Below are positions 1 through 58,913 of a stretch of 64,000 nt of DNA, one piece after another (within the stretch, counting starts at the first letter, position 1; each line of letters opens with the position of its first letter). A program made the position numbers and the translations under genes. The notes beneath the pieces are model-generated. The model was given only the letters and a program-made list of their open reading frames with translations, was not told the DNA's origin and ran no database searches. The stretch spans positions 724 through 64,723 of the forward strand of contig CBINOT010000001.1 of the NCBI GenBank assembly GCA_966252355.1, given 5' to 3'. Origin of the DNA: an uncultured Opitutus sp. GTDB taxonomy: Bacteria; Verrucomicrobiota; Verrucomicrobiia; Opitutales; Opitutaceae.

Positions 1-2343
1 TTGCCGCACGATTGGAGCATCGAAGGCGCATACGACGAACACGCTCTCACCGGCGGCTCGGGCGGCTATCTTCCGGCCGGAATCGGTTGGTACCGAAAGT
101 CATTCACGCTGCCCGAATCCGCGCGCGGCCGGCGGGTGACGATCCAATTCGACGGCGTGTACCAGCACAGCACCGTCTGGATCAACGGCCACGAACTCGG
201 CACGCGGCCGTATGGTTACGCGACATTTTGGTACGAGCTGACGCCCCACCTGCGTTTCGACGGTACGCCCAACGTCATCGCCGTCCGCGTCGACAATGCC
301 GCTCAGCCGAGCAGCCGCTGGTATTCCGGTTCGGGCATTTATCGCCACACTTGGCTGACCCTCAGCGATCCGCTGGCGATCGTCCCCTTCGGCGTGTTCG
401 TGACGACCCCGACGGTCGCGACCGAATCCGCCACCGTCAATGTGCAGACGCATCTCCGCAACGGCCGCGCCGCTCCGGCTCGCGTGGTGCTGCACACGGA
501 AATCCTGAACGAGCGCGGCGAGCCGCTGACGCCCCCGGTCGAAGCGTCGTCCCCGGTGGCGGACGTCGCCGCCGGCGCGGAACTCGAGCTGACCGCGGCC
601 TTGAATATGCCGGCGCCGCGACGGTGGTCGCCGGAAACGCCGACGCTGCATCGCGCCCGCACGGAACTCCAGATTGACGGCGTCGTGGTCGATGCGGTCG
701 ACACCTCGTTCGGCATCCGTCGGCTGGAGTACGACGTGAATCGCGGCCTGCTGATCAACGGCACGCCGGTGAAACTGCGCGGCATGTGCGTGCATCACGA
801 CGGCGGCGCGGTGGGCGCCGCGGTGCCCGAGGCAGTGCTCGAGCGTCGTTTGCGCCTCTTGCAGGAGATGGGCTGCAATGCGATTCGCGCGAGCCACAAT
901 CCGATGGCACCGGAGTTCTACGATCTCTGCGACCGGCTCGGCCTCCTCGTCATGGACGAAGCGTTCGACGAATGGACGATCCGCAAATCGCAGATCAAGT
1001 TCGGCTACTCCGATGTGTTCGATGCGTGGTGCGAGCGCGACGTCACCGACTTCGTCCGCCGCGATCGCAACCATCCTTCGATCGTGATGTGGAGCGCCGG
1101 GAACGAAATCCCGGAGCAACGCGCGCCGAACGGGCCCGAGGTGCTGCGCCGATTGCTCGCAGTGTTTCATCGCGAGGACCCGACGCGGCCCGTCACCGCC
1201 GCGATGGACAATGTCTTCAACGAGAAAGGCCAGGCGCCCGTGGCGTTTTCCGACCAGCTCGACATCGTCGGCTACAACTACGTCGATCGTTGGGGCGCGC
1301 GGCGCGAAACCCACTACGCCGACGACCGCTCCGAATTTCCGCGGCGCAAGTTCGTCGGCACCGAGAACGTGACGGCGCGCGGCACGCGCGGCGAGTATCG
1401 TTTCGGCCCGCTGATCGGCGGCGGCTTCGGCGGTTTCGCGAGCGCCCGCCCGAGCCCGGCGGTCGGGCCGGAAGGCGCGCTCTATCTGGCCGGCACGATA
1501 CGCTTCGGCGCGCTCTGGAAGTTTATTGCGACGCACGATTACGTGATCGGCGACTTCGGGTGGACCGGGATCGATTATCTCGGCGAAGCGCGCTGGCCGC
1601 GGAAGGGCGCGGCTTCGGGCTCGCTCGACACGTGCGGCTTCAAGAAGGACACGTTCTATTTCTACCAAAGCCTCTGGACGGCCGCGCCGATGCTGCACCT
1701 GTTGCCGCACTGGAACTGGCCGGACCGCGTCGGCAAGACCGTGCCGGTCGCGGCCTACTCGAACTGTCCCATCGTCGAGTTGTTCCTCAACGGGCGCAGC
1801 CTCGGTGCGAAAGCGCGCGAATTTCCCGCGCAGGGCAACGCGGGTTCCTGGAACTCCTATGCCCAGCCGCCGATTCAGGCGACGACGGGCGATCTGCAAC
1901 TCGTGTGGGATGTGCTCTACGAGCCCGGCGAGTTGAAAGCCGTCGGCTACGATCGCTCCGGGAAGCCGGTCGCGGAAGCCGTCGTGCGCACGGCCGGAGC
2001 GCCGGCGACGCTCGAAGTGACGGTCGACCGGCTGACGATTGCGTCGGACGCGCGCGATGTCGCGCACGTGACGGTGCGCGCGCTCGATGCGAGCGGCGTT
2101 TTCGTGCCGCTCGCGCATGACGCGCTCACGTTCGAGCTCACCGGACCCGCGAAATTGATCGGCGTCGACAACGGCGATCTCACGAGCCACGAGAGCTACA
2201 AAACGAACACGCGTCCCTTGTATCTCGGGATGGCGCTGGCGCTCGTGCAATCCACGTCCGACGCCGGCACCGCGCATCTCGTCGTGCACGCGGCCGGCTT
2301 GCCTGATGCTGCGGTCACGATCGCGACCGCCCCGAAATTGTAG
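1..2343 (+). CDS. Glycoside hydrolase family 2 (beta-galactosidase type), probably 5'-truncated by the window edge
   Basis: GH2 motifs GVYQHSTVWING, RWYSGSGIYRH, CNAIRASHNP, WSAGNE (acid/base) and FVGTEN (nucleophile), plus C-terminal Ig-like domains. The frame is open from base 1 with no signal peptide visible. Confidence 0.93.
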   Translation: MPHDWSIEGAYDEHALTGGSGGYLPAGIGWYRKSFTLPESARGRRVTIQFDGVYQHSTVWINGHELGTRPYGYATFWYELTPHLRFDGTPNVIAVRVDNAAQPSSRWYSGSGIYRHTWLTLSDPLAIVPFGVFVTTPTVATESATVNVQTHLRNGRAAPARVVLHTEILNERGEPLTPPVEASSPVADVAAGAELELTAALNMPAPRRWSPETPTLHRARTELQIDGVVVDAVDTSFGIRRLEYDVNRGLLINGTPVKLRGMCVHHDGGAVGAAVPEAVLERRLRLLQEMGCNAIRASHNPMAPEFYDLCDRLGLLVMDEAFDEWTIRKSQIKFGYSDVFDAWCERDVTDFVRRDRNHPSIVMWSAGNEIPEQRAPNGPEVLRRLLAVFHREDPTRPVTAAMDNVFNEKGQAPVAFSDQLDIVGYNYVDRWGARRETHYADDRSEFPRRKFVGTENVTARGTRGEYRFGPLIGGGFGGFASARPSPAVGPEGALYLAGTIRFGALWKFIATHDYVIGDFGWTGIDYLGEARWPRKGAASGSLDTCGFKKDTFYFYQSLWTAAPMLHLLPHWNWPDRVGKTVPVAAYSNCPIVELFLNGRSLGAKAREFPAQGNAGSWNSYAQPPIQATTGDLQLVWDVLYEPGELKAVGYDRSGKPVAEAVVRTAGAPATLEVTVDRLTIASDARDVAHVTVRALDASGVFVPLAHDALTFELTGPAKLIGVDNGDLTSHESYKTNTRPLYLGMALALVQSTSDAGTAHLVVHAAGLPDAAVTIATAPKL

Positions 2344-44615: not shown

Positions 44616-45641
44616 TCACAATGGCAGCAGGCCTTGTTGCTTGCGCTGCGCAATGCTGTCCTCCCATTGCATCATCCCGAGGCGCCGCGACACTTCCATC
44701 TCCTGCCGCAATCCCATCCAGTTTCCTTGGCGAACGAGACGTTCCATTTGCGTGAGTCGCTCCCCGTGGTCGTTGCGGAAATACATTACTTCAAAGATCG
44801 GGACTAGGCCTTGCATCCCGGGCACCAAGCGTTGCAACACGACGCCTTCGAGGCATGACGCCAACGCGTCGCGTGCGCCTACGTCCTCCATGTTGGGATT
44901 GATGATGCTAAGGAAGCGCTGCGGTGTCGTCGGCGCGGTGTAGGCGTGGATCGACGCCACGACGACGTGGCCGCTCAGCGCGGCTGACAAAGCCGTTTCC
45001 GCTTCGTCACGTCGCCGAATTTCCTGCACCATGAGCACGTTCGGCTTTTCCTGCAGCGCTTCTTCGAGCGCCGCTGCGTACGTGATCGCTTGGACGCCAA
45101 CCTCGCGCTGATGGAAAACTGCTTTTTCGCTGTCCTCGTGTTCGAATTCGATCGGACGTTCGATCGTGATAAATTTGCCTCCGACTTCTACGGCGCGCGC
45201 CTTCAACAACGAGGCGAGGGTCCAGGTTTTCCCCGAGCCGGTGACGCCACCGACGAGAAAGAGGCCACCTTGAAGGCGCAAAAAGTATTCCTTCAAACCG
45301 GATGGCAGCCGCAGGTCTTCCGGCTTCACGATCGTTCGCGGCAACGGTCGCACCGAAACCGCTTCGCCTTCGCGGTTGGCTGAAATGGTGACGCGATATC
45401 GCCGACCCTTCGGGTCCCGCACGACCGTGGTAAATCCGCATCGACGGTCTGGCGGTCGCTCTGGTAGCCACGCCGCAATCGTTTGAGCCCATGTTTCGGC
45501 GAGCGCGGGGATCCGCGTGACCGAGAGCATCGTGTTCCGACATACGGCAACACATCCCGTCGATTTTAACGTCACGTCTGTCGTGCCCGGCTGCACCGTG
45601 ATCTGGTCGAGTAATTCGAAAACCGGAAAGGCGGTCGTCAT
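44616..45641 (-). CDS. pilT: Divergent PilT-like retraction ATPase
   Basis: 341 aa; GGVTGSGKT, ITIERPIEF, QREVG, ALQEKPNVLMVQEIR, SGHVVVASIHA. Confidence 0.8.
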   Translation of the reverse strand: MTTAFPVFELLDQITVQPGTTDVTLKSTGCVAVCRNTMLSVTRIPALAETWAQTIAAWLPERPPDRRCGFTTVVRDPKGRRYRVTISANREGEAVSVRPLPRTIVKPEDLRLPSGLKEYFLRLQGGLFLVGGVTGSGKTWTLASLLKARAVEVGGKFITIERPIEFEHEDSEKAVFHQREVGVQAITYAAALEEALQEKPNVLMVQEIRRRDEAETALSAALSGHVVVASIHAYTAPTTPQRFLSIINPNMEDVGARDALASCLEGVVLQRLVPGMQGLVPIFEVMYFRNDHGERLTQMERLVRQGNWMGLRQEMEVSRRLGMMQWEDSIAQRKQQGLLPL

Positions 45642-45644
45642 GCG

Positions 45645-46976
45645 TCAAGGTATGACTGAAATGGAAAGCGTCGTGCCGGTGCTGACCGATGTGCCGTTCT
45701 CGAACGATAGGCGTCCAATCGGCGTCCCGTCCGGTCCCGCCGGTGCGCTAAACTGCATCGACCCTGGCGCGTAAAAACCGCCGCGGTCTGCGGCGCTCGA
45801 CAATAACGGTACGCCCAAAACCGACTTTGTGCGCGAGAATGTCCACGAAGCGCCATCGGTCGCCGCGCCGTTCGGGACGACGGGAGTTGCGGCGACGACG
45901 ACGGCATCTGCCCACAACGACAATGCATCGGCCGCGAAAAACGATTTCAGGTCGCCGGAGAATGGGCCGGCGACATCGTGAAACGTCGCTTGGAAGCCGA
46001 TCGATTGCGCCATCCACGCGTTGCCGAACACCGCTTTTGTCGTCGCGGGAAAATCGATCTTCAATGTCACCGCGCCGCTTTGCACCGCATAGAAGCTCGC
46101 ATAGTCGAAAGCCAGCGTGGCGCCGCCGGCATTTTCGACGGTGTTGCGAGCGACGATGGGCGCTCCTAAGCCAATCTTGTAGTCGAAGTTTGTGTTCGTG
46201 CTCGGCTCGTAAATCTGGAGCCGGCCATCGGGTCGGGTAACAAACCAGCGCGTGCGCCCATCGGCCAAGGTCGCACTGCGATCGCCGCCGCCGACATTGC
46301 CGGGATATTCGGTCCAAGCCGCTCCGGTCACATGGTTCAGGAGATCGATGGCCGTAACGGTGTAGCGGACCGCATCGGGCGCGCGGACTGTGGCGAAGGG
46401 CTGGTTCAATACCATGCTCACGTTCGTGCCTGCAGCGCTGGCGGCGACGATCTCGAGCGTATAGGGATCGCCCGTCCCGGCGGGAGATAGAGCGTTCGCT
46501 GCGACAATGGAGCCATCCGCCGGTGTCACCACCGGTGCTGGCATGACTACGGGAGCCAGCGGAGCCGCGGGTTTCGTTCGAGCAGCTACCGCGCCGCCGG
46601 CCCCGATCTGATAGCCTGCGCCAACGAGTCGCGTTTCGGCCACGGTATTATCGAGGGCTGCGCGCAGTGGAACGATCCGAGCGATGCCAGGCGTTGCGGT
46701 CACTTCGTCGTGCGTGACTGCCAGCTGCGGCACCGTGGGGACGGATGCATTTGTCACCGACATCAGCCCCGGTGCGAGGGATGGATCGATTCCGGCGGCG
46801 AGCGCTTGGTCGTTGAACGATCGCCACGCTTCACGACGTCCTTGCTGGCCCATGGCGCTGTTCAGATCGTGAATGCGACTCACAAAGATCAGAAAAGGCC
46901 CGAGCACCACGCCGACGAACACAATGGCGATGACGAACTCGATTAACGTGAATCCAGCGATGCGCCTCGGTTTCAT
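45645..46976 (-). CDS. Large minor pilin/pseudopilin
   Basis: Class III signal MKPRRIAG|FTLIEFVIAIV; ATGA overlap. Confidence 0.85.
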   Translation of the reverse strand: MKPRRIAGFTLIEFVIAIVFVGVVLGPFLIFVSRIHDLNSAMGQQGRREAWRSFNDQALAAGIDPSLAPGLMSVTNASVPTVPQLAVTHDEVTATPGIARIVPLRAALDNTVAETRLVGAGYQIGAGGAVAARTKPAAPLAPVVMPAPVVTPADGSIVAANALSPAGTGDPYTLEIVAASAAGTNVSMVLNQPFATVRAPDAVRYTVTAIDLLNHVTGAAWTEYPGNVGGGDRSATLADGRTRWFVTRPDGRLQIYEPSTNTNFDYKIGLGAPIVARNTVENAGGATLAFDYASFYAVQSGAVTLKIDFPATTKAVFGNAWMAQSIGFQATFHDVAGPFSGDLKSFFAADALSLWADAVVVAATPVVPNGAATDGASWTFSRTKSVLGVPLLSSAADRGGFYAPGSMQFSAPAGPDGTPIGRLSFENGTSVSTGTTLSISVIP

Positions 46977-48331
46977 AGCCGCACGGTGTTGGTTGCCACG
47001 TACACCACGCGCGGAGCGATCGCTTCGATCGCACTGGGTAATGGCGCGCTGGTGACCGCATGTTCCGGAATTCCGGTGCTGCCGGACCAATACGAGAGAT
47101 GCCCTACGGTAATGGGGCCGTCGGGATTCATCGTGCTCGTCGGATCTAGAAACAGCGCCCCGTTGAGCGCGGTGCCGGCACCCGCGATTACGCGAATGTT
47201 GTAGCCGACGATCACGATGGGACGTGCGATCGTCGTGAGCTCAACCGTCAGCGGCCCTGTGCCGGAATCGGCGGGCCCCAAGATCAGAAGAAACAGCGGC
47301 GATGTTGCCGTGCTTCCTACCGAGTCGGATAGACGGATGGTTTTCCCAATCTCTTCGGTAAAGACGACCGCGGCATCTTTGATGAGCGTCACCGTCCCGT
47401 ACGTTCCGCTGCCGGCAAGCGCGAGGTCCCACGAAGTCACCAGTCCTGCCGTGCTCATGCCTGCCAGCGTGGCCGTGCCCGATGCAGCATCGAGGTCGTG
47501 AAAGTGCGTGATGCCCGCATACTCGGCCACCCGATCGACGAACAGTTGCGAGAAGAGGTATTGATACGCCGCGGCGAGCGTGGCGCGGCGACGATAGTGG
47601 TACGGCAGAACGCCCTTTTGCGCTTGAAGGTCTGGCACGAAAGCAGCATCGCGCGATGGCACGAGTCCCCTTGGCGAATCCGGCGACGGTGCGATGACCG
47701 GAGCGGCGTCCGTCCGACCGATCTCGACCGGAAGATCGTATGCGGCGATCGGGAAGCGCGTCAGGGGCACGGCCATCAAGCGTGCTTTTACCTGGGTGCG
47801 ATACGTGCGGGTCGCGTCGAGAACCGTCCGTTCGCTGGCGAACTCGAACGTCGCTTCCGGATAGGCGGCAACGCGCGGGCCAACGAGCAAAGCGAGCTCT
47901 GGCGTGAGATACGGCTGTAAATCGGCGGAGACCGAGCTCAGTGCATCAGGTACGGCCGTTGCGTTTGGAAATCCCACGGTCGACGGCAGCGAGCTCGGTA
48001 TGACCGTCGCCGTAATCGCCGGATCGCCGTTGGTCAGTTGCCGCAAATGCACGTTAAGTGCCTCGGCCAGTGGCGTCGTCGATACGGACACCGCGATTTG
48101 GCGCGCGTCCAAGATCGTTTCAGCGACGACGCGTTCCAACCGGACGCTTTCGGTCGCGCCTTGCCGGTACGTATCGTAAGCGCGCGATGTCGTCGCAACG
48201 CTCGTCAACACCAGCACCTGCATTGAAGCGACCACCCCCACGAACGCGACGATAACCACGAACATCACGATCAGGTAGCCACCGTTGCGGGAGCGTTGGA
48301 TGCCTCGGCTGACATTTCCGGCGATCGTCAT
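46973..48331 (-). CDS. PilX/GspK-like minor pilin
   Basis: RSRNGG|YLIVMFVVIVAFVGVV signal lacking Glu5, as in PilX/GspK; large globular C-terminus. Confidence 0.75.
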   Translation of the reverse strand: MTIAGNVSRGIQRSRNGGYLIVMFVVIVAFVGVVASMQVLVLTSVATTSRAYDTYRQGATESVRLERVVAETILDARQIAVSVSTTPLAEALNVHLRQLTNGDPAITATVIPSSLPSTVGFPNATAVPDALSSVSADLQPYLTPELALLVGPRVAAYPEATFEFASERTVLDATRTYRTQVKARLMAVPLTRFPIAAYDLPVEIGRTDAAPVIAPSPDSPRGLVPSRDAAFVPDLQAQKGVLPYHYRRRATLAAAYQYLFSQLFVDRVAEYAGITHFHDLDAASGTATLAGMSTAGLVTSWDLALAGSGTYGTVTLIKDAAVVFTEEIGKTIRLSDSVGSTATSPLFLLILGPADSGTGPLTVELTTIARPIVIVGYNIRVIAGAGTALNGALFLDPTSTMNPDGPITVGHLSYWSGSTGIPEHAVTSAPLPSAIEAIAPRVVYVATNTVRL

Positions 48332-49131
48332 GGCGATACGGCGAGAAAATAGCTGAAGCGCGAAAACGCGGGGATGTCATCGGCCTGACCACGACTACCG
48401 GCGTAAACCCAGGGATCGGGGAATACGGCGCAAGTGGGTCCTTCTTCGCTCACAGCCCCGACGCGGTAACGCAGCCAGGTGTGAACGGCGCCGATGAATA
48501 CGCGCGACGAAAACGCCGGGCGTTCAGCATAGGCATAGCGCTGCGCACCTTCTTCGGCGTCCCATAACTTTACCTCCCGTACGGTAAATGGAATCGTCTC
48601 GGTGCCGTCGGATACCGAAATATCGTGTCGGCGTACTTGGACGAGACAGGTAATCGCGAGTGAGTTTCCGTTCATCCCGACCATCGCGACGGAAAAATCT
48701 TCGGCCGCCGTGTTGGTCTCCTGATCGCCCAGCTCCGACGCATACAAATCGTAGAAGCTCTTGGCATCCATCGGCAGCCCCCGCGTCATGTCGGCGATCA
48801 CGGGAAGCGTTTGGAGCTTCAGAGGACGCACCTGAGCAGCCGCGGCCTCGGTCGGAATTGAGAGGTGTTGTCCGCCGAAGACGTAGATCGCCCGTGCTGC
48901 AGCGGCCCGATTGGTCAACGTGTGATGCAAGCGCACCGCGGACGGAAATGAGCCGAAGGTTGGCGCGATGGGCAGCTCTTCACTGGAAAGCGTCACCCGT
49001 TGCGGCTGCAATCCTCGGATAAGCGCGATCAAGCCCGCCAGCAACGCCACGACTACGATGGACGACATGACCAGCACGATGACGACTTCCGCCAAGACGA
49101 AACCGCCCTTTGCCTCTACCTTGGGCTTCAC
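48328..49131 (-). CDS. PilW/GspJ-like minor pilin
   Basis: MKPKVEAKGG|FVLAEVVIVLV class III signal. Confidence 0.82.
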   Translation of the reverse strand: MKPKVEAKGGFVLAEVVIVLVMSSIVVVALLAGLIALIRGLQPQRVTLSSEELPIAPTFGSFPSAVRLHHTLTNRAAAARAIYVFGGQHLSIPTEAAAAQVRPLKLQTLPVIADMTRGLPMDAKSFYDLYASELGDQETNTAAEDFSVAMVGMNGNSLAITCLVQVRRHDISVSDGTETIPFTVREVKLWDAEEGAQRYAYAERPAFSSRVFIGAVHTWLRYRVGAVSEEGPTCAVFPDPWVYAGSRGQADDIPAFSRFSYFLAVSP

Positions 49132-49527
49132 TCAATCAGGGTAGTTAAGAGTCCCGCCGGCTTTGTCGCGAAGGACGGTCTTTGCTTTCAAAGCGCCTGC
49201 CAGGGTCAGTGTATAACCGCCGGTTGCGCTTAACCAATCCGACGGCGATCCGGTCAAGGTCCCGGCGTTCACGAGCAAGGTTGAACGATCGGCGTCGGAC
49301 GCGGCGGCGGCCCACTGCGTCGCCGCATCGGGCACGGTCATGGAATAGGTGAGCCGGGCCGCGTTCACAATCCGCGCTTTATTGACAGCCGCGGCTTCGC
49401 GACCCGCCGGCACTACATTGGTAAACCCACCGACGACCATGGTGGCGAGCAGTCCAATCACCATGACGACGACAAGGATTTCGAGCAGCGTGAACGCTGC
49501 TCGTGCCGTAGGCCGAGTCTGGTGCAT
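49132..49527 (-). CDS. Type IV pilin-like protein
   Basis: ARAA|FTLLEILVVVMVIGLLA, with Ala rather than Gly at -1. Confidence 0.88.
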   Translation of the reverse strand: MHQTRPTARAAFTLLEILVVVMVIGLLATMVVGGFTNVVPAGREAAAVNKARIVNAARLTYSMTVPDAATQWAAAASDADRSTLLVNAGTLTGSPSDWLSATGGYTLTLAGALKAKTVLRDKAGGTLNYPD

Positions 49528-49530
49528 TGG

Positions 49531-49977
49531 CTACGGCCTTTGTGTACGATCGCCGAGCTTGGCGGCGAAGGTCGGAGGCTTGGTCGATGTTCCGGCCGTG
49601 AAAGTATACGCGGCGGGATTAACGACCTGTTTCAGCTTCACTTCTTGTTTCTGTCCGCCTGGCACCGTTGCGGGTATCTCCACCCCGGCGGTTAACGCGT
49701 TGATGGCGGAAGTGCCATCGGCCCAAACGGACGTGTCGACGCCAGAGTTAAATAGCGTCTCCGCAAACTGATTCAACACCTGCGCGTTGTGGGTTTTCGC
49801 GGTGTCGTTCGTTGCATCGAAAAATCGATCGACCGTCGGAATAACGAGTGCCGCTAAAAGTCCGAGCGCAACGATCACGAGCAAGACCTCGAACATCGTA
49901 AAACCCTGCCGCTTACGGCGGCGCGGTGACGGCGAAGCAAGCTGCGCAGCAGCCTGAGAGGTGAGATTTTGAGTCAT
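49531..49977 (-). CDS. Type IV pilin-like protein (probable major pilin)
   Basis: RRRKRQG|FTMFEVLLVIVALGLLAALVIP; first gene of the operon; alternative GTG start at 50004. Confidence 0.9.
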   Translation of the reverse strand: MTQNLTSQAAAQLASPSPRRRKRQGFTMFEVLLVIVALGLLAALVIPTVDRFFDATNDTAKTHNAQVLNQFAETLFNSGVDTSVWADGTSAINALTAGVEIPATVPGGQKQEVKLKQVVNPAAYTFTAGTSTKPPTFAAKLGDRTQRP

Positions 49978-50152
49978 AGGCGAGGAGGTTGGAATCTGGA
50001 GCACTTAGTTATGGTAAAATAGCTTTTATAGCGTCAACGACGAAAACGGCAATTAGATTTTACAATGGGTTGCGATTGGTGTCCTAGCACGACGCCGCCA
50101 TGGCACCGACGACGACCTTGCTCTCGCTCGTGCGAAATTATTGGCTGCCGTC

Positions 50153-51019
50153 ATGCGTGTCAGCCGCATCGTCATCGTCATCAACCAGGGCAAGGCCCAC
50201 GCCCGGCGCACCGCCGAGGCATTGAAGGAGCTCTTCGACGCCCATGGCGTCACGCAGGACTGGCGCGACGCCTTGATGCCCACCAAGGGGCGGTCGCATC
50301 AACTCAACGATCTCCGTCACACCGACGCCGACCTGATCGTCGCTTGCGGCGGCGACGGCACGTTGCTCCAGACCGCCCACCGCGCCCGCGGCTCCGGGGT
50401 GCCGATTCTGGGCATCAATATCGGCTACCTGGGCTTCATCACCTCGGTGCCAGGCAACAAGGTCCGCTCCGCCATGCGGCGGATTCTCGACGCCGACTTT
50501 GTCGTCAGCCGCCGGACCACCCTCGACGTGGACGTCGAAACGAGCGGCAAATCCGCGCCGGGTTGGGCGTTGAACGATGTCGTGATCGGCCGCGGACCTA
50601 ATCCGCATCTCATCGCCTTGGAAGCCCGTATCGGACCGCGCCCGCTTACGCGCTACCGCTGCGACGGGCTGATCGTCGCGACGCCCACGGGATCGACCGC
50701 TTACTCGCTCGCGGCGGGCGGGCCGATCGTGAGCCCGGAGTGCAATGTGCTCATCGTTACGCCGATTTGCCCGCATGCGCTCACCAACCGGCCGCTGGTG
50801 ATCAATTCGACGGAGACCGTCGAATTTCGGCTCGCGCGCGGCTCCGGCGAGGGGCTCGTGCAGGTCGACGGCATGCCGATCTCCAAGGTGGAGGCGGCGA
50901 GCGTCATTCGGGTGAAGACCTCGGCGGACACCGTGCCGATCGCCTTCCTGCCCGAGATCAATTACTACGATGTTCTCGGCGAGAAACTCGGGTGGACCGG
51001 CGACGGCTTGAAGGGTTGA
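50153..51019 (+). CDS. nadK: NAD kinase
   Basis: GGDGTLL, GINIGYLGF, LNDVVI, DGLIVATPTGSTAYSLAAGGP. Confidence 0.96.
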   Translation: MRVSRIVIVINQGKAHARRTAEALKELFDAHGVTQDWRDALMPTKGRSHQLNDLRHTDADLIVACGGDGTLLQTAHRARGSGVPILGINIGYLGFITSVPGNKVRSAMRRILDADFVVSRRTTLDVDVETSGKSAPGWALNDVVIGRGPNPHLIALEARIGPRPLTRYRCDGLIVATPTGSTAYSLAAGGPIVSPECNVLIVTPICPHALTNRPLVINSTETVEFRLARGSGEGLVQVDGMPISKVEAASVIRVKTSADTVPIAFLPEINYYDVLGEKLGWTGDGLKG

Positions 51020-51023
51020 GCCG

Positions 51024-52652
51024 ATGAGCACGCTGCTCTTTCCCGGGCGACATCTGGTCAACACGCGCTTTCAACAAGAGTATCTCCGCCAGTTGATCGG
51101 TCGCCGGCCGGCGGAAATCCCGGATTGGCGAGGCCGCGGCGCGAGACCGGCGACGCCGATCGATCGCGTGGTGTTCGCCATCACGTCATCGAACCAGGAT
51201 GCGTCGCGCTTCAATCCCGTGCCGTTTCACATTCGCGCGATCGGCGTCGATCGCTTCGCGCGGGAGCTCGCGGCGACGGCTCCGTTTACCTACCGCATCG
51301 TCGGCGTCCCGCATTACGGGCATACGCCGAACTTCGCGGCGTTCACCTTGAAGGAGATCGCGGGGCAGACGGAGAACCTCGAGCGGCTCACGCCCGAAAA
51401 CACGGTGGTGCTGTGCTCCACGCCGGAGGTCCTTCGGCTGTACGAAGAGCTCGGGTATGGCATCGCCCCGGCCGAGCTGGCGGTGACGCCGCCACCGGCC
51501 ACGCCAATCGATCTCGTGCGGGCGATCGCGGACGCCGGCGCGCGCTGGCCCGAACAGCCGCTCGTCGCGGCGCAACTGGCGCCCGCCACCCGGACGCTCT
51601 TGCACGATTTTCCGGAGGTGCCCGAGCGCATCGGCCGGATTTATCGCGACCCGCTCACGAATCAGGAAGGCAGTCTCACCGAGCGGCGGAACTACAACAC
51701 GTATGCGCGCGGGATGAACGCGATCCTTCGCCTCAAATATCTCGATATCCGCGACGCCATTCGCCCGGGACGGATCGTCGACGAGGGGTGTGCGGACGGC
51801 GGCTTGCTGGCGGAAGCCGCGCAGGATTTTCGGGATTCGGATCTCTATGGCATCGATTTATCGGCGGAATTCGCGGCGCGCTTTCAGGAACGGAAGCGCG
51901 CCGGGGATTTCGGCGACGTCTATACCTGTTTCTATCTGCGCAATCTGCTGGATCCGATTTTCGAGGCGGAGTCCGTCGACACGACGATCTGCAATAGCAC
52001 GCTGCACGAGCTCTGGAGCTATGCGGAGCAGGAGAAGACGGTGCGGGGGTATCTTGGGATGAAGCTCGCCCAGCTGCGGCCGGGCGGCCGTCTGATCGTG
52101 CGTGACGTGGTCGGGCCGGAAAACGGTGACATGCTCGTGGCGTTGCACTGCGCGGCCGACGACGGGATGGCACTCGCGCCGCAGGATGTGCCGTCGGATC
52201 GACCGGCGAGTGTGCTCGAGCAATTGTCGACCCGCAGCCGTTTCCTGTTGTTCGCCGCCGACTTTCTTGCCGACCAGCGGATTCGCGGGCGGCGGGGTGA
52301 CGACGCCCGGGTGCAGTTCGAGGAGCGCGACGGACGATTTTATCTCTCGTTACGCGCCGCGGCGGAGTTTCTCTCGAAGAAGGACTATGTGGACAACTGG
52401 CGTTCGGAGATGAACGAGGAATTTTGTTTCTGGAGTTTTACGCGCTGGAAGCAGGTCCTCGGCGAAGTCGGCTTCCGCGTCATCGACGCGGCGCCGAACA
52501 TTCCGTGCGGCTCGCGGGTGTACGCGAATCCTTGGATCGTCGAGCAACGCTATCGCGGTCGCGTGCAGCTCGCGTCGGCGACCGCACCCGAACGAGCGAT
52601 CGACTTTCCGCCGACGAACATGGTGCTCGTCGCGGAAAAGCCGGAGCGGTAA
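51024..52652 (+). CDS. Nucleotidyltransferase-like N-terminus fused to a class I SAM methyltransferase
   Basis: N-terminal LFPGRH...TSSNQ...FNPVPFHIR recalls NadM/HIGH-fold motifs. C-terminal IVDEGCADG, YGIDLS, CNSTLHEL and LRPGGRLIVRD are class I methyltransferase motifs. Confidence 0.7.
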   Translation: MSTLLFPGRHLVNTRFQQEYLRQLIGRRPAEIPDWRGRGARPATPIDRVVFAITSSNQDASRFNPVPFHIRAIGVDRFARELAATAPFTYRIVGVPHYGHTPNFAAFTLKEIAGQTENLERLTPENTVVLCSTPEVLRLYEELGYGIAPAELAVTPPPATPIDLVRAIADAGARWPEQPLVAAQLAPATRTLLHDFPEVPERIGRIYRDPLTNQEGSLTERRNYNTYARGMNAILRLKYLDIRDAIRPGRIVDEGCADGGLLAEAAQDFRDSDLYGIDLSAEFAARFQERKRAGDFGDVYTCFYLRNLLDPIFEAESVDTTICNSTLHELWSYAEQEKTVRGYLGMKLAQLRPGGRLIVRDVVGPENGDMLVALHCAADDGMALAPQDVPSDRPASVLEQLSTRSRFLLFAADFLADQRIRGRRGDDARVQFEERDGRFYLSLRAAAEFLSKKDYVDNWRSEMNEEFCFWSFTRWKQVLGEVGFRVIDAAPNIPCGSRVYANPWIVEQRYRGRVQLASATAPERAIDFPPTNMVLVAEKPER

Positions 52653-52679
52653 CCGCTCGGCTTCGGACGTCCGGCTCGG

Positions 52680-53222
52680 CTACGGTCGCACGGACAGATA
52701 CTGCGGCGGCACCTGCTCCGTCAGCCAGACGCCGTTGGCCGAGCGGAAAAACCGATGTCCGTCCGCGTGCATTCGCTCCGCCGCAACGTCGAACACGACC
52801 GGTCGACCGTGGCGCCGGCCGACCTCGACGGCCACGGCGTAATCGGCCGAGAGATGCACATGGTGGCGGTTGCCGCGTACGAGACCTCGGGTGCGGATGG
52901 AGTCGAGAAACCGATCCGCGGTCCCGTGGTAGAGGATATCCGGCGGAGTGACTGGCTCGTAGGCGAGGTCGACGTCGACCGAATGGCCCTGATTGGCGCG
53001 GATGCGCTGGCGATCTTCGCTGAAGGCGAATCGCTGCTTGTCGCTTTCGGCGACGAGGCGCTCGAGCAACGGCCGCGTGAGCGAAACGCCCGCTGCGTTG
53101 CAACCGCGGAGCAGCGCCTCCACCTCGACCCAACCCGACGCATCCAGCGTGAGGCCGGCTTTCTCCGGCTGGTGCCGAAGCACGAGACTGAGGAATTTAC
53201 TGAGACGAACGTGATCGGACAT
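52680..53222 (-). CDS. kptA: RNA 2'-phosphotransferase Tpt1/KptA
   Basis: SKFLSLVLRH.P...GL.LD..GW, DKQRF, IRANQGHS, LYHGT, HVHLS, NGVWLT; start is ATG 53222. Confidence 0.96.
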   Translation of the reverse strand: MSDHVRLSKFLSLVLRHQPEKAGLTLDASGWVEVEALLRGCNAAGVSLTRPLLERLVAESDKQRFAFSEDRQRIRANQGHSVDVDLAYEPVTPPDILYHGTADRFLDSIRTRGLVRGNRHHVHLSADYAVAVEVGRRHGRPVVFDVAAERMHADGHRFFRSANGVWLTEQVPPQYLSVRP

Positions 53223-53227
53223 GACGT

Positions 53228-53749
53228 TTAAGATTTCGTTTGGGGATCGAGAGCGGCGGCGTAAGCGGTCCAGACTGCGTCCGTGAAGCAGGAAACCCAG
53301 AGGTGTTGAATCGTATCGTCGGTTTCCAGGTGAGCACGAAGGGTGCGCACTGCGACCTGCGCCGCGTCCGTGATAGGATACCCATAGACGCCGCAACTGA
53401 TCGCAGGAAACGCGATGGTTTTGATGTCGTGCTGCGCGGCCAAGCGAAGGCTCTGGCGATAGCAGGACGCGAGCAATTCGGGCTCGTTTTGGGATCCACC
53501 GCGCCACACCGGACCGACGGTGTGAATGACCCATCGCGCAGGCAGACGATAACCGCGGGTAATCTTCGCTTCGCCGGTTTTGCACCCGCCCAGGGTTCGG
53601 CACTCCGCCAATAATTCAGGACCGGCGGCCCGGTGAATGGCACCGTCAACACCACCGCCGCCGAGCAGCGAGGAGTTGGCTGCGTTCACGATCGCATCGA
53701 CCTGAAGGCGGGTGATGTCTTCGCGGGTGAGCTCGATCGTCGCTTTCAT
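53228..53749 (-). CDS. ymdB: MacroD-type macrodomain (O-acetyl-ADP-ribose deacetylase / ADP-ribosyl hydrolase)
   Basis: DIT...[46 protein letters not shown]. Confidence 0.96.
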
Positions 53750-54987
53750 GCCCCTTGTTCGTGCAGGTGGAGCTGCGAGCCGAGCGCGCCGTCGATGCGG
53801 ACGATTTTGTCCGGGTGCTGGTATTGCGCGACGAGATAGCGCGTCAGATCGACGTGCAGGCCACCGATGCCTTGCAGGAAGGCGAGTTGCTCGGCGTTGT
53901 CCGACCGGCGTTGTTCGAGCTCCAACGCGTGGCTACGCTCGCGTAAGGCGAGATCCTGTTCCGCGGCGTTGCGCGCGAGCTCGAGCTCCTGCGTCTTTTG
54001 GGTGCGCTCGAGGCGCAGCTTGGCCTCGGCGCCGAGGGCGTTCAATCGCGTCTGGTGGACGACGCGCTCCTGTTCGACGGCCTGACGCTCCTTTTCGCGC
54101 TCCGCGTCGCGCTGCTGCTTCATGTCGGCGAGATCCTGCGCCTGCTGCTCGGTTTCCGCTTCGAGCCGCAGCTTGGTCCGCGTTTCGATCGCATCGTCGT
54201 GCATCGTCTGCAGCGTCGGACTCGCCTGATAGCCGCGGTAAACGACCTTGCCGATGCGATAGCCGATCGCCGCCGCGCGCTTCACAAGCTGCGGGTAGGT
54301 TTCCAACGCGTTGAGCTTTTCCGTCTTTTCCTTGAAACGCTCGAATGGCTCCGTCGCGGCGAAGTCGATCACGTCCGCGGTCGCCGCATTGATGAAATCG
54401 GCGATCGGGTCGTGCGTTTGGTCGAGCATGCGTTCGATGTCGTCGAGTTCGAAGAACAGCATGAGCTTCACCGTGAGCAACGCATCGTCGGCCGTGCGCA
54501 CGCATTCGACGTCATAGTACATCTGATCGGGGATCACGCGCAGCTTATCGAATTGCAATGCGCTCGGCTGCTTGCGCCGGTGATCGCGCGGATCGGCTCC
54601 ATGCCAGCTGAAGTGGTGCAGCCACTCGTCCGGCGCCGGCATGAACAACGCCGGGCCGCGCTCGATCCGGCGGCTCACGCCGGCGGCGGTCGGACGGTAC
54701 ACGACGATCGCCTCGTTGGCATCGAGCTTGATGAGCGGCGCGACCCGGATGGTTTCGATGGTCACCGGATCGAGCCAGGCAGCCGACGGACCGCGTTGGT
54801 GCGCCGTGCGGCCGTCTTTGTGCGCGATTACGAGATAGTGGTCCGGGCCTGCGGTGTGGCGCTCGAGAGCCTGCACCGTTTCGCCGAAGAGCGCGAGGCG
54901 CCGCGGGCCGTCGACGAGCCGCGCGTCGCCGTTCCGGCCCCACACGAGCACGCGTTCACCTTGCGGAATGACAGTGAATCCGATCAT
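53746..54987 (-). CDS. Major-vault-protein-like / SPFH protein (three vault-like repeats, shoulder domain, coiled coil)
   Basis: Three repeats ending in GP ([22 protein letters not shown]); [22 protein letters not shown] and [14 protein letters not shown] resemble the MVP shoulder; long E/Q/R coil; start ATG 54987. Confidence 0.7.
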
Positions 54988-54992
54988 GGCGT

Positions 54993-55844
54993 TTACCTGC
55001 GTTGAGTTTCTGCCGGACAGCCGGCGAATTGAGTTTGGAAGGCGCCGAGCACCGCGCTGCCGGGACTGCGATCGAAGATCGCGAACACAATCTCGCCAAA
55101 GACATCGTGAAAGCGCCCGCCGGCGAGCAACAGCTCCGCGAACACGCGGGCAACGAGAGCGGGATCGTTGCGAAACACGCCGCAGCCCCAGGCGCCGAGA
55201 ATCAGCCGCTCGATTTTCTCGGCGGCAGCGACGGCGAGAACTAGTTCCGCACGACGACGCAGCGTCGGCTCGATCGACGCGGCGTCGTCGGGCTGATTCT
55301 GGAGCACGGCGCCGGCATTTGGCGCCGGAGCGGTGACGATCGAGCAACAGGCGATGCGCTCGAGCAGAGTACCGTCGTCGGCGCGGAAGAACGGCACCGC
55401 CGGAGAAAAAATCGCGAGATCGAGGTACAGCGCCGACCGCTGGGCGCGGTTGCGTTCGTAGTAGCTGGGTTGAGTCAACAGACACGGGTAGAGCGCCGAC
55501 GAGCGCGCCAGCGCTTCTTCCTGGGCTTGAGCACCGCCGAGAAATCCACCGCCCGGATTCTTGGCCGAAGCGAAGTTGAGCGCGGCCAGGGCACCACCGC
55601 CGGCGCATTCCATCCGCACGATCGCCTCGCACGTCGTTTCCGCTGTCACGCTGATCTGCGTGGGGCCGGGTCGTCGCGACAAAGGGCGGTCGACCACGGC
55701 GAGGTCGTAAAGACGGGTTCCCGCTCTGGCCGCCGCGACGAGCGGCGCGAGCGAAAGAGTGGTGCCGCCGGGCGAACGATATTCGCCCGCCGCGATGATA
55801 CGCAGGGTTTCCTCCGCCAGGGCGGCTCGATCGTTTCGGGGCAT
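54993..55844 (-). CDS. TIGR02452/DUF2263 bacterial PARG-like macrodomain
   Basis: LNFASAKNPGGGFLGGAQAQEEALAR (PARG GGG-x6-QEE signature) and LILGAWGCGVFRNDP. Confidence 0.92.
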   Translation of the reverse strand: MPRNDRAALAEETLRIIAAGEYRSPGGTTLSLAPLVAAARAGTRLYDLAVVDRPLSRRPGPTQISVTAETTCEAIVRMECAGGGALAALNFASAKNPGGGFLGGAQAQEEALARSSALYPCLLTQPSYYERNRAQRSALYLDLAIFSPAVPFFRADDGTLLERIACCSIVTAPAPNAGAVLQNQPDDAASIEPTLRRRAELVLAVAAAEKIERLILGAWGCGVFRNDPALVARVFAELLLAGGRFHDVFGEIVFAIFDRSPGSAVLGAFQTQFAGCPAETQRR

Positions 55845-55880
55845 TGTGAGTGTCCTTTCGGTTCGGCTGTTATGCGCCGC

Positions 55881-56495
55881 TTAGGCGAGCAACGTGCTGT
55901 GGGTGATGGTCACCCCGGCGGTTTTCATTTCGGCGATGGCCTGCTTGGCGTCGCCGGGTCTGAGATTCACGCCGCGGCAGCCGTCCTCGATCAGATATGT
56001 GGCGAAGCCGAGGGCGCGCGCATCCAGCGCGGTGGCCTTCACGCAATAATCGGTGGCCAGCCCCAGGATAAAGACCTCGGTCACACCGTGCTGACGCAGG
56101 TAATCGCCGAGGCCCGTGGCTTTCTTGCGGCCGTTGTCGAAAAAGCCGCTGTAGCTGTCGATTTCCAGATCGGTGCCTTTCGGAAAGACGCGAGCGATGC
56201 GCTTGGTTTCAAGGCGCGGAGCAAACGCGGCGCCGGCGGTGTTTTGCACGCAATGCACCGGCCAAAGCACCTGCGGGAGTCCGCCAAGCTCGCCGAGTTC
56301 CCCCGACTTTCGGTGAGGGTGATTGGCCGCGAAACTGCCGTGATTCGCCGGGTGCCAGTCCTGGGTCGCGGCAATCAGCTCGAACGCGGTTTGCACGCGA
56401 TTAGCGACCGGCACCACGGCGTCCCCCTCCGGCACGGCCAGCGCGCCGCCCGGGAGGAAGTCGTTTTGGATATCGACGAGAACGAGCGCTTTCAT
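55881..56495 (-). CDS. pncA: Nicotinamidase/pyrazinamidase
   Basis: VDIQNDF, QDWHP, WPVHCVQ, KG...DSYSGF, GLATDYCV. Confidence 0.96.
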   Translation of the reverse strand: MKALVLVDIQNDFLPGGALAVPEGDAVVPVANRVQTAFELIAATQDWHPANHGSFAANHPHRKSGELGELGGLPQVLWPVHCVQNTAGAAFAPRLETKRIARVFPKGTDLEIDSYSGFFDNGRKKATGLGDYLRQHGVTEVFILGLATDYCVKATALDARALGFATYLIEDGCRGVNLRPGDAKQAIAEMKTAGVTITHSTLLA

Positions 56496-56500
56496 GCGGT

Positions 56501-57190
56501 TCAAAGTTCGAAGTTAAAGCCCGCTTTGTTCAGCCGGCGGTAAGTCGGCTCGTCGAAGCGATAGAGCCGCGCCGCGCGATGGGCCACGTCCTGCTGAATC
56601 TCTTCGGTGTCGGCGAGCAGGCCCATGCTCAGGATCTTCTTGCGGAAATTCCGCTTATCGAGCGGCTGCTCGAGGATGGTTTCATAGAGCCGCTGCAGCT
56701 CCGACAACGGGAACTTCTCCGGCAGCAGCTCGAAGCCGATCGGCTCGTAGCGAATCTTCCCTTTGAGCCGCCGGAGCGCGACCTCGAGAATCTCCTCGTG
56801 GTCGAAGGCAAGCTGGGGGAGATCGGCCACCGGGAACCACGCGACATTGCGCGCATCGCTGGCGGCCCGCACGGCATGATCCGCGAGCTTCACCAAGGCG
56901 TAGTAAGCGACGCTGATCACGCGCTCCCGCGGGTCGCGCTTCGGCTCGCCGAAGGTGTAGAGCTGCTCGAGGTAAAGCTTCGTGATGCCGGTCTCTTCCT
57001 CGAGCTCGCGCCGCGCGGCGTCTTCCAGGCTCTCGTTGATGTTCACGAACCCGCCGGGCAGCGCCCATTTTCCTTTGTAGGGCGCGAGATCGCGCTGGAT
57101 GAGCAAAACCTTCAGATCGGCGTCATCGTAGCCGAAGACGACGCCGTCAACCGTGACGGCGGGGTGCGGGTATTCGTAGGTGAAGGGCAT
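56501..57190 (-). CDS. nrtR: NrtR regulator (Nudix plus winged HTH)
   Basis: WALPGGFV...[44 protein letters not shown]; NAD-salvage context; start ATG 57190. Confidence 0.93.
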
Positions 57191-57212
57191 AGCGGCGATT
57201 TTTCGACTACGG

Positions 57213-57231
57213 TGGTGTAAAAATAACACTA
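57213..57231. promoter_or_regulatory. NrtR-type operator 1
   Basis: TGGTGT-AAAAATA-ACACTA (GT-N7-AC palindrome) upstream of nrtR. Confidence 0.8.
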
Positions 57232-57241
57232 AGCAAGTCTA

Positions 57242-57260
57242 AAGTGTTCGAAGTACACTA
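57242..57260. promoter_or_regulatory. NrtR-type operator 2
   Basis: AAGTGT-TCGAAGT-ACACTA. Confidence 0.8.
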
Positions 57261-57309
57261 AGCCCGCGTTCGCTCAATGGAACTCGGCGATCACTTCGAT
57301 CGGGCCGAC

Positions 57310-57374
57310 GAGGTAGCGGCCATCGTCCCAATGGCCACGTTCGATTTGGCGTTCCGGACGACCGCCGCTACCTC
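57310..57374. repeat. Inverted pair of GTAG REP-like units (REPIN-like hairpin)
   Basis: GAGGTAGCGGCCATCGTCCCAATGGCC (57310-57336) versus the reverse complement of 57348-57374, GAGGTAGCGGCGGTCGTCCGGAACGCC. Each unit has an internal palindrome. Confidence 0.65.
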
Positions 57375-57422
57375 ATTCAACGTGCCCGATGCGTGCGCAT
57401 TCATGGCGTGGGGCGAGTGGCG

Positions 57423-58892
57423 TCAGCCCGCGACGGGCCGGTGCTGGAGGATGAGGTCCGTCTTCAATGCGGACAGGGCAGGCTCGAGGCCGACGGGATA
57501 TTCGTGCGGGTTCAGCAAACGCTTCGTGCCCGCATGGAGCATCGCCAGTTGCGCCTGTGTGCGCGCCCGGATGGCCGGGAGCGGCGGCTCGGCGTAGACG
57601 AGCGCGCCGCCGCGAAAAATCGGCACGAGCAGGTCTTCGCGGGTCGCCGTTGCCGGCATTTCCTTGCGCCGGGTCGGATTGTTCGGATCGACGATGACAC
57701 GCGCGGCGCTGGGTGCGGGCTCGTGGTAGATCATGTCGCCGATGAACTCGCCGTTGCGGGTGAACCGTGCCACTTGGAGGATTCCGGGGGTGGTGATCTT
57801 TGCCGCCTGCTCCGACAGCTTCACCTTGTACGCCCAGGGGCCGCCGGCGTCGCGGATGGCGCCGAGTTTGTAGACGCCGCCGAGCGCCGGTTGATCGAAC
57901 GCCGTGACGAGCTTCGTGCCGACGCCCCACAGGCCGATCTTCGCGCCCTGCTGTTTGAGGCTCGCGATGATGTGTTCGTCGAGGTCGTTGCTGGCGACGA
58001 TCACGGCGGCCGTGAAGCCGGCGGCATCGAGCAGGCGACGCGCTTCGATGCTCAAGTACGCCAGATCGCCCGAATCGAGCCGAATGCCGGCCAACTCATG
58101 GCCCTTGCTCCGCAACCAGCGGCCGACCTCGATCGCGTGCGCGACGCCGGCGAGCGTGTCGTAGGTGTCGACGAGAAACACGCAGTTGTTCGGCATGGCT
58201 TCCGCGTAGGCGCGGAACGCCGCGGCTTCGTCGTCGAACGACATGACCCAGCTATGCGCGTGCGTGCCTTTCACGGGGAGGCCGAAGATCTGTCCGGCGA
58301 GGACGTTCGAGGTGGCCGCGCAACCGCCGATGAAAGCGGCGCGGCTGGCGGCGAGCGCGCCGTCGACGCCCTGCGCGCGGCGCAAGCCGAACTCGAGCAC
58401 CGGTTCGCCCTGCGCCGCGAGGCAGACGCGCGCCGCCTTCGTGGCGACGAGTGTCTGGAAGTTGATCAGGTTGAGCAGCGCGGTTTCGACGATCTGCGCT
58501 TGGAGGATCGGGCCTTTGATGCGCAGCAGCGGCTCGTGGGCGAAAACAGCGGTGCCCTCGGGAATCGCATCCACGTCGCAGGTGAACGTGAAGTCCCGCA
58601 GATAATCGAGAAACGCGGCCTCGAAGAGCGGAGCGCCATCGTTGCCGGTCAAGGTGCCCAGATAAGCGAGATCGGCCTCGCTGAATTTCAGGTCGCGCAG
58701 CCACGCGATCGCGTCGCCCAGCCCGGCGGCGATCGTGTACCCGCTGCGAAACGGCGCTTGGCGAAAGAACAGATGGAAGACCGCTTCCTTTTCATGCATG
58801 CCGGTCCGCCAATAGCCGTACGCCATCGTCAGCTGGTAAAGATCGGTCAGCAAGGCCGACGCCCGGTAGCGAGGAGCAGTCGCGTCGTTCAT
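57423..58892 (-). CDS. pncB: Nicotinate phosphoribosyltransferase
   Basis: [64 protein letters not shown]. Confidence 0.97.
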
Positions 58893-58894
58893 TA

Positions 58895-58913
58895 TAGTGT
58901 CGAAAAGACACTA
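58895..58913. promoter_or_regulatory. NrtR-type operator 3
   Basis: Perfect TAGTGT-CGAAAAG-ACACTA, 2 nt from the pncB start codon. Confidence 0.85.

Follow-up and report, generated by a model that had tools for sequence, protein, structure and literature searches.

A diverged NadM-type domain fused to a SAM methyltransferase in an NrtR-linked NAD gene neighbourhood: a candidate pyridine-nucleotide-directed enzyme

What might a methyltransferase be doing when it is joined to a nucleotidyltransferase-like domain and encoded directly behind a kinase for nicotinamide adenine dinucleotide (NAD)? The question is raised by a 542-residue open reading frame (ORF; positions 51024–52652, plus strand) in a 64,000-nucleotide stretch of contig CBINOT010000001.1 from an uncultured Opitutus sp. 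(assembly GCA_966252355.1); this stretch is referred to as the window, and all coordinates are window positions. The ORF, its Pfam matches and its homologues describe a NadM-like domain followed by a class I S-adenosylmethionine (SAM) methyltransferase. The fusion is genuine, as a protein search returned 910 homologues of equal length, all of them titled merely 'methyltransferase'. Immediately upstream lies nadK2 (50141–51019, plus strand), which is identified as an NAD kinase by Pfam (NAD_kinase, E = 4e-14; NAD_kinase_C, E = 1e-32) and by a GGDGT motif. A first-pass annotation of the locus had placed the start of the fusion gene 4 bp after nadK, and this is what the sequence reads: the TGA stop, the letters gccg and then the ATG. 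In our view, the sequence data point to the fusion being, most likely, a pyridine-nucleotide-directed methyltransferase.

The N-terminal 208 residues (51024–51647, plus strand) are, according to an AlphaFold model, structure searches and profile alignment with hhalign, a diverged fold of the NadM type of nicotinamide mononucleotide (NMN) adenylyltransferase (NMNAT). The domain modelled alone has a predicted local distance difference test score (pLDDT) of 89.8 and a predicted template-modelling score (pTM) of 0.88. When this model was compared with the PDB using Foldseek, the first 13 places were all taken by archaeal NMN adenylyltransferases, followed by NadM-Nudix enzymes; entries 4yp6, 1hyb, 1ej2 and 1f9a matched with E values of 3e-9 to 4e-7 and template-modelling (TM) scores of 0.72–0.79. 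A VIA-align search of 48,161 representative chains, which is independent of Foldseek, gave 1f9a as the best match (Z = 16.5, root-mean-square deviation 2.9, 164 of 164 residues aligned). It was followed by the NadM entries 2qjo (Z = 14.1) and 2qjt (13.1), NadR (8x7f; 12.0), NadD (about 11) and phosphopantetheine adenylyltransferase (PPAT; 10.8), with the NMNATs scoring above PPAT, cytidylyltransferases and ATP sulfurylase. The first-pass annotation had staked its reading on a HIGH-type fold at the N-terminus, and NadM and the archaeal NMNATs are indeed the best matches in both searches.

Sequence comparison reaches the same family from a greater distance. A profile built from 26 of the N-terminal domains and run against the PDB with HMMER matched 1f9a alone (E = 0.13), in the block that reads IGSAQ..NPF..ER, and hhalign aligned the domain with a genuine 166-residue NadM over 121 columns (E = 1.3e-4, probability 53%). 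No Pfam family matched residues 1–240 at E ≤ 0.01, CTP_transf_like (PF01467) failing to detect the domain; an NCBIfam scan matched the protein from residue 222 onwards only, which leaves the N-terminal domain without a curated family. Alignment by hhalign with the NadR-type NMNAT domains encoded beside orthologues produced no match. We note that the genuine NadM aligned above, which bears GRFQPFHKGH (L094, positions 376–876, minus strand), comes from a metagenome-assembled genome (MAG) labelled Nanoarchaeota that also holds a family member (locus L057), so that both forms coexist there.

The HxGH signature of the fold has been replaced. Residue counts were taken from a 72-sequence alignment whose members are 41–72% identical to the window protein. 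The segments GRHLVNTRFQ (residues 8–17) and SSNQ...NPVPFHIR (residues 55–71), to which the first-pass annotation had drawn attention, are present and are not chance resemblances, since at least 97% of the members retain their key residues G8, R9, T14, Q17, S55, N57, R62, N64, P65 and R71. The G-R that follows strand 1 is retained (G8 and R9 each in 71/72; H10 in 68/72). The position of the HxGH motif, which in NadM enzymes binds ATP and stabilizes the transition state, was located by the fold alignment, which runs from residue 2, and by matching G8-R9 to the GRFQPFHxGH of the L094 NadM; it reads T14-R15-F16-Q17 (T14 70/72, F16 69/72, Q17 70/72). The IGSAQ..NPF..ER block corresponds to I-T54-S55-x-N57-Q...R62-x-N64-P65...R71, which is nearly invariant, with S55, N57, N64 and P65 each in at least 70 of the 72 sequences, R62 in 71 and R71 in all. 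The likeness of this block to the NadM motif, also suggested in the earlier annotation, is upheld by HMMER, which aligns it with the Methanocaldococcus jannaschii NMNAT, and by hhalign, which aligns it with genuine NadM.

Beyond this block, V-P-D of NadM corresponds to P96-H97 (72/72 and 70/72), the position assigned to the NadM Trp by hhalign is F104 (68/72), and TGN has become C-S132-T133 (S132 67/72, T133 72/72). SGTxxR reads T-P161-I-D; its Ser/Thr part is gone, and hhalign sets the NadM Arg opposite R166, in a column that holds R in 37, K in 12 and Q in 18 of the 72 members and is thus basic in 49. E151 is also among the conserved residues of the domain. A sequence HYGH at residues 97–100 was considered as a relocated HxGH and rejected: P96 and H97 alone are conserved across the family, positions 99–100 vary, and the tetrapeptide is kept in Verrucomicrobiota only, a lineage-specific coincidence. 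The HxGH, Gx(D/N) and xxSSTxxR elements have been described as those that stabilize ATP in this superfamily (review, PMC3509593). The alignment argues that the HxGH site is re-purposed rather than decaying, because the residues that substitute for it are themselves invariant and under strong purifying selection. The first-pass description of the domain as a 'degenerate' NadM therefore holds as far as the loss of HxGH is concerned and calls for qualification in so far as it implies decay.

Between the two halves lies an almost invariant linker or lid (residues 209–245; 51648–51758, plus strand) with the pattern D-P-L-x-x-x-x-G-S-L-T-x-x-R-N-Y-x-x-Y-A-x-G-M. P210, G216, T219, R222 and Y227 are found in all 72 members and L211 and Y224 in at least 70, and the segment is predicted to be flexible (pLDDT 49–55 at residues 211–230).

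The motifs and the modelled fold of the C-terminal half mark it as a class I SAM methyltransferase that is intact and resembles the small-molecule enzymes. Its core (residues 246–365; 51759–52118, plus strand) carries motif I as V-D253-E-G-C-A-D-G259, which is invariant, as well as G-I-D-L-S and N-S-T-L-H-E, which are invariant or almost so; within G-I-D-L-S, G276 is kept at 97% or more and I277 at 90–97% across phyla, and D278 is invariant in a 25-sequence alignment. Several Pfam families pass their cut-offs at residues 245–365, namely Methyltransf_12 (34.5 bits against a cut-off of 30), Methyltransf_25 (31.2 against 27), Methyltransf_31 (29.1 against 27) and Methyltransf_11 (29.7 against 21.2), and Methyltransf_23 also reaches its own, in agreement with the earlier statement that the motifs are intact. 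The best sequence match of the region is NCBIfam NF005379 (PRK06922; residues 222–387, E = 1e-15), a partial match of 57 bits against a cut-off of 602 that covers model positions 394–563 of 677.

In the structural comparisons the seven-strand fold is present, with Foldseek E values of about 1e-9 against class I methyltransferases. The VIA search with residues 210–542 returned class I methyltransferases in a flat plateau (Z = 17–20), in which 185–215 of 330 residues were aligned; this indicates an insertion of about 120 residues. The plateau consists mostly of small-molecule and natural-product methyltransferases, with Bud23 and RlmA also appearing, and assignment to one subfamily was rejected on account of its flatness. 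The insertion, a putative substrate cap, falls with the last methyltransferase strands in the C-terminal part of the protein (residues 366–542; 52119–52649, plus strand), the last 175 residues of which match no Pfam family. The insertion has many conserved residues of aromatic or acidic character, and E-E-F-C-F-W, W475 and W504 are conserved in the C-terminal part.

The association of the two halves is obligate. Searching with the N-terminal domain alone gave 198 clusters at 50% identity, and every full-length protein that has this domain also has the methyltransferase. Other partners were sought and none was found; longer proteins bear the same methyltransferase and short ones resemble fragments. 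The fusion is 41–76% identical across Verrucomicrobiota, Chloroflexota, Patescibacteria and others. We fetched 80 orthologue loci from species-representative genomes, some of them MAGs with doubtful labels; they cover Verrucomicrobiota, Chloroflexota, Planctomycetota, Patescibacteria/Saccharibacteria, Sericytochromatia, Armatimonadota and Acidobacteriota, and the ESM atlas contributes clusters from Actinomycetota and Myxococcota. A quick maximum-likelihood tree sorts by phylum, with support of 100 for Verrucomicrobiota, 97 for Chloroflexota and 98 for Patescibacteria. Two loci titled 'uncultured Bifidobacterium' or 'Bifidobacteriaceae' (L012 and L025) fall inside the Verrucomicrobiota clade of this tree, and four titled 'Methanosarcinales archaeon' (L027, L034, L038 and L072) sit beside the Patescibacteria clade; a further locus of that title outside the tree, L070, has NrtR beside the gene. 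All seven loci seem to bear unreliable organism labels.

Broad as its distribution is, the fusion is rare: in sampled genomes it was found in none of 300 others of the phylum, one of 200 of the same family and none of six of the same genus. Contamination by contig C1 was considered as an explanation of the 0/300 and rejected, since neither its GC content nor its tetranucleotide usage sets it apart from the assembly. NrtR was detected in one of five genomes of the genus, and with the fusion in none of six the whole NrtR, NAD salvage and ADP-ribose island (about 50141–58913) is therefore accessory.

The neighbourhood of the gene supplies the link to NAD. When the surroundings of the 80 orthologues were surveyed out to 8 kb, at least one named NAD or ADP-ribose gene cluster was found at 45 loci. 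NadK was recorded at 25–29 of these 80 loci and NrtR at 25–31, followed by NadE (18), PncA (15), ADP-ribosylglycohydrolase (13), PncB (12–15), NadR-like proteins (12), PnuC (8), NADAR (6), KptA (5), Macro (4) and the poly(ADP-ribose) glycohydrolase PARG (3). The NAD-linked loci comprise nearly all those of Verrucomicrobiota, many of Patescibacteria and one Acidobacteriota MAG.

Operators of NrtR provide a second line of evidence. In the window, two boxes of the type TAGTGT-N7-ACACTA with one mismatch each lie at the start of nrtR (57213–57231 and 57242–57260), and a palindrome scan found a perfect box, TAGTGTCGAAAAGACACTA, upstream of pncB (58895–58913); such sites number three against 0.24 expected. 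A box stands directly upstream of the fusion gene at four verrucomicrobial loci (L007, L011, L019 and L026), and directly upstream of nadK plus the fusion gene at four others of that phylum (L016, L018, L023 and L025). We also observe the same palindrome, conserved from Verrucomicrobiota to Patescibacteria, by nrtR, pncB, pncA, nadE and pnuC-nadR operons (the window and loci L002–L079). The first-pass annotation had made a linkage of the homologues to NAD genes the second check of its proposal, and the 45 loci in several phyla, together with the operators, bear it out. The earlier interpretation is largely supported on both counts, while the function it put forward, a pyridine-nucleotide-binding or -modifying enzyme or an NAD-sensing methyltransferase, stays putative. 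The most economical reading of these sequence data is that the fusion gene belongs to an NrtR-linked NAD salvage and ADP-ribose module.

How might such an enzyme work? We judge the chances to be about even that the fusion acts in NAD metabolism through two modules, of which a non-adenylylating NadM-type one binds an NAD-family ligand and presents it to the fused methyltransferase or gates that domain. The N-terminal domain would no longer adenylylate and would instead bind a pyridine mono- or dinucleotide or an NAD-derived metabolite. The bound molecule would be offered to the class I SAM methyltransferase, or would control it, and the acceptor site would be closed by the flexible linker, which is invariant, and by the 120-residue insertion. 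The product would be a methylated NAD-family metabolite or precursor, perhaps formed when NAD turnover is high.

Several observations weigh against this interpretation. The AlphaFold model of the whole protein has a pLDDT of 84 and a pTM of only 0.66, and at the sequence level the homology to NadM is weak, as the hhalign probability of 53% indicates. The retention of R9 and of a basic residue at 166 in 49 of the 72 members suggests that residual nucleotidyl transfer is possible. The loci from Chloroflexota, Sericytochromatia and Armatimonadota have no NAD genes within 8 kb, nor any conserved neighbours whatsoever, and in the window no NrtR box with two or fewer mismatches precedes nadK.

An alternative that we consider unlikely is that the N-terminal domain is purely an allosteric sensor of NAD, NADP or ADP-ribose, which would switch the methyltransferase on a non-pyridine substrate such as a protein (for example NadK2), an RNA end or some other metabolite. 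An NMNAT-like fold with conserved pocket residues would suit a sensor, and there is a precedent for one: in the enterobacterial repressor NadR, NAD and ATP are sensed by the NMNAT domain, and NadR (8x7f, Z = 12.0) is among the structural matches. The methyltransferase, however, is more like small-molecule enzymes than those acting on protein or RNA, Bud23 and RlmA in the plateau notwithstanding, and the obligate fusion and the invariant linker suit a composite active site at least equally well. The 4 bp spacing to nadK2 would fit a protein partner, but many loci have no NadK2 beside the gene.

Still less probable, in our estimate, is a bifunctional enzyme whose N-terminal domain remains a nucleotidyltransferase with G-R-H...T-x-F-Q as its motif; it would form or cleave a dinucleotide that afterwards serves the methyltransferase as substrate. 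Thr at the first position of the motif occurs in active relatives (TxGH), yet here Phe stands for the Gly of HxGH and Gln for its second His. R9 (71/72), H10 (68/72), R62 (71/72), R71 (72/72) and the basic residue at 166 (49/72) speak for such an activity, within a pocket that is as a whole under strong purifying selection; against them stand the failure of Pfam CTP_transf_like to detect the domain and the change of TGN to C-S-T, where the superfamily has a conserved Gx(D/N) (PMC3509593). Canonical NadD or NadR-type genes, moreover, coexist with the fusion, including in Patescibacteria with genomes of 0.7–0.8 Mb. The related proposal that the fusion supplies a missing nicotinate mononucleotide (NaMN) or NMN adenylyltransferase was rejected: the host genome encodes a canonical NadD (170.6 bits, above cut-off), so that NAD synthesis does not depend on the N-terminal domain, and five other host genomes, including ones of 0.7–0.8 Mb, have CTP_transf_like genes.

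That the N-terminal domain binds some other nucleotide or phosphorylated ligand, its NAD neighbourhood reflecting hitch-hiking on an accessory island, is improbable, for although the island is accessory (NrtR 1/5 and the fusion 0/6 in the genus, the fusion 1/200 in the family) and 35 of the 80 loci have no NAD gene nearby, the NAD link recurs with differing gene orders in separate clades of the tree (Verrucomicrobiota, Patescibacteria and the Acidobacteriota MAG), NrtR operators lie immediately upstream of the gene itself, and the fold searches place NMNATs, specifically, above PPAT, cytidylyltransferases and ATP sulfurylase.

The genome encodes two NAD kinases. The NadK that adjoins the fusion is the second and divergent one of the pair; it shares 35% identity with the paralogue on contig C33 (8917–9717), and its best NCBIfam models score about 205 bits, below all NAD-kinase equivalog cut-offs. 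Relatives carry only the type that is 35–40% identical, with the single exception of genome G017, which has both; there the island-type kinase (68% identical) and nrtR-pncA converge without an intervening methyltransferase. The second NadK is part of the NrtR island even where, as in this relative, the methyltransferase is missing. The substrate of NadK2 may differ from that of the housekeeping enzyme. We put forward only tentatively the more specific proposal, which we think possible though short of probable, that the enzyme and its dedicated NadK2 make an undescribed methylated metabolite of the NAD(P) family, or methylate an NAD precursor or ADP-ribose derivative, with the pseudo-NMNAT domain acting as a substrate clamp. 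If so, NAD metabolism would have a new branch under the control of NrtR, retained even in Patescibacteria with genomes of 0.7–0.8 Mb.

The genes downstream of the fusion are convergent to it and form the minus-strand operon nrtR-pncA-PARG-unknown-macro-kptA. Convergence with an NrtR operon had been recognized in the first-pass annotation, and Pfam identifies the five named families NrtR, PncA, PARG, Macro and KptA. In this operon nrtR, for the Nudix-related NAD regulator (56501–57229; NUDIX and NrtR_WHD), is followed by a pncA-type isochorismatase/nicotinamidase gene (55881–56504; Isochorismatase, E = 5e-25) and a microbial-type PARG gene (54993–55844; PARG_cat_microb, E = 4e-46). Between PARG and the macro gene lies a reading frame for a 414-residue protein (53746–54990) of no recognized family, for which Pfam, PADLOC and PHROGs gave no match; the protein recurs in the fetched stretches of three further loci (L002, L017 and L073). 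The Macro domain protein (53228–53749; Macro, E = 1.3e-51) and the NAD-dependent RNA 2'-phosphotransferase KptA/Tpt1 (52680–53222; PTS_2-RNA, E = 1e-51; NCBIfam 264 bits, above cut-off) complete the operon. The kptA start is M128 of the longer ORF, and 27 bp separate its stop codon from that of the fusion gene. Just past nrtR, and also on the minus strand, is pncB for nicotinate phosphoribosyltransferase (57423–58892; NAPRTase_N, NAPRTase_C and NAPRTase). On the opposite side of nadK there is a type IV pilin-like or type II secretion cluster (44616–50004, minus strand) that contains two N_methyl prepilin-type proteins, a T2SSE ATPase and intervening ORFs with no Pfam match.

We know of no methylation step in the pathways of bacterial NAD synthesis and salvage. 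The fusion is a concrete and testable candidate for one, because the obligate fusion recurs beside nadK, nrtR, nadE, pncA/B, nadR and pnuC in distant phyla and behind NrtR operators. Our literature search, the coverage of which is incomplete, found nothing relevant that pairs NrtR, NadM, an NMNAT-like domain, NADAR or NAD kinase with a methyltransferase. A defence-system or phage family was considered and rejected, since PADLOC and PHROGs yield generic methyltransferase matches only. It would, in addition, illustrate clearly how the catalytic fold of NMNAT can be converted to the recognition of a ligand. Experiments are feasible, as the cultured Chthoniobacter flavus Ellin428 (L010) carries the gene.

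Comparison with the archaeal NadM enzymes (1f9a and 1ej2/1hyb) shows that the N-terminal domain shares their fold over the entire 164–167-residue enzyme and the order of its elements, together with the G-R after strand 1, the S-x-(Q/N), the N-P, the Arg, the P-(D/H) and an aromatic residue at the Trp position. It differs from them in that HxGH is T-x-F-Q, TGN is C-S-T and the Ser/Thr of SGTxxR is lost, its Arg being partly kept; in an insertion of about 25 residues after helix A; and in that it is never free-standing and is missed by CTP_transf_like. The NadM-Nudix enzymes (2qjo and 2r5w/2qjt) and NadR (8x7f and 6gye; NMNAT and ribosylnicotinamide kinase) likewise join an NMNAT-fold module to a second NAD-related module, and NadR-like genes occupy the same neighbourhoods as orthologues of the fusion. 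The genes for NadM and NadR are themselves members of NrtR regulons. In those enzymes, however, the partner is a Nudix hydrolase or a P-loop kinase, whereas here it is a SAM methyltransferase and the NMNAT-like module is without HxGH. With the class I small-molecule methyltransferases (PH0226, 1ve3; SpnL, OxaG, DsyB, PMT, RebM and Coq5) the C-terminal half shares the seven-strand Rossmann-like core and the SAM motifs, to which the fusion adds two elements absent from all of them, the insertion of about 120 residues and the NMNAT-like domain at its N-terminus.

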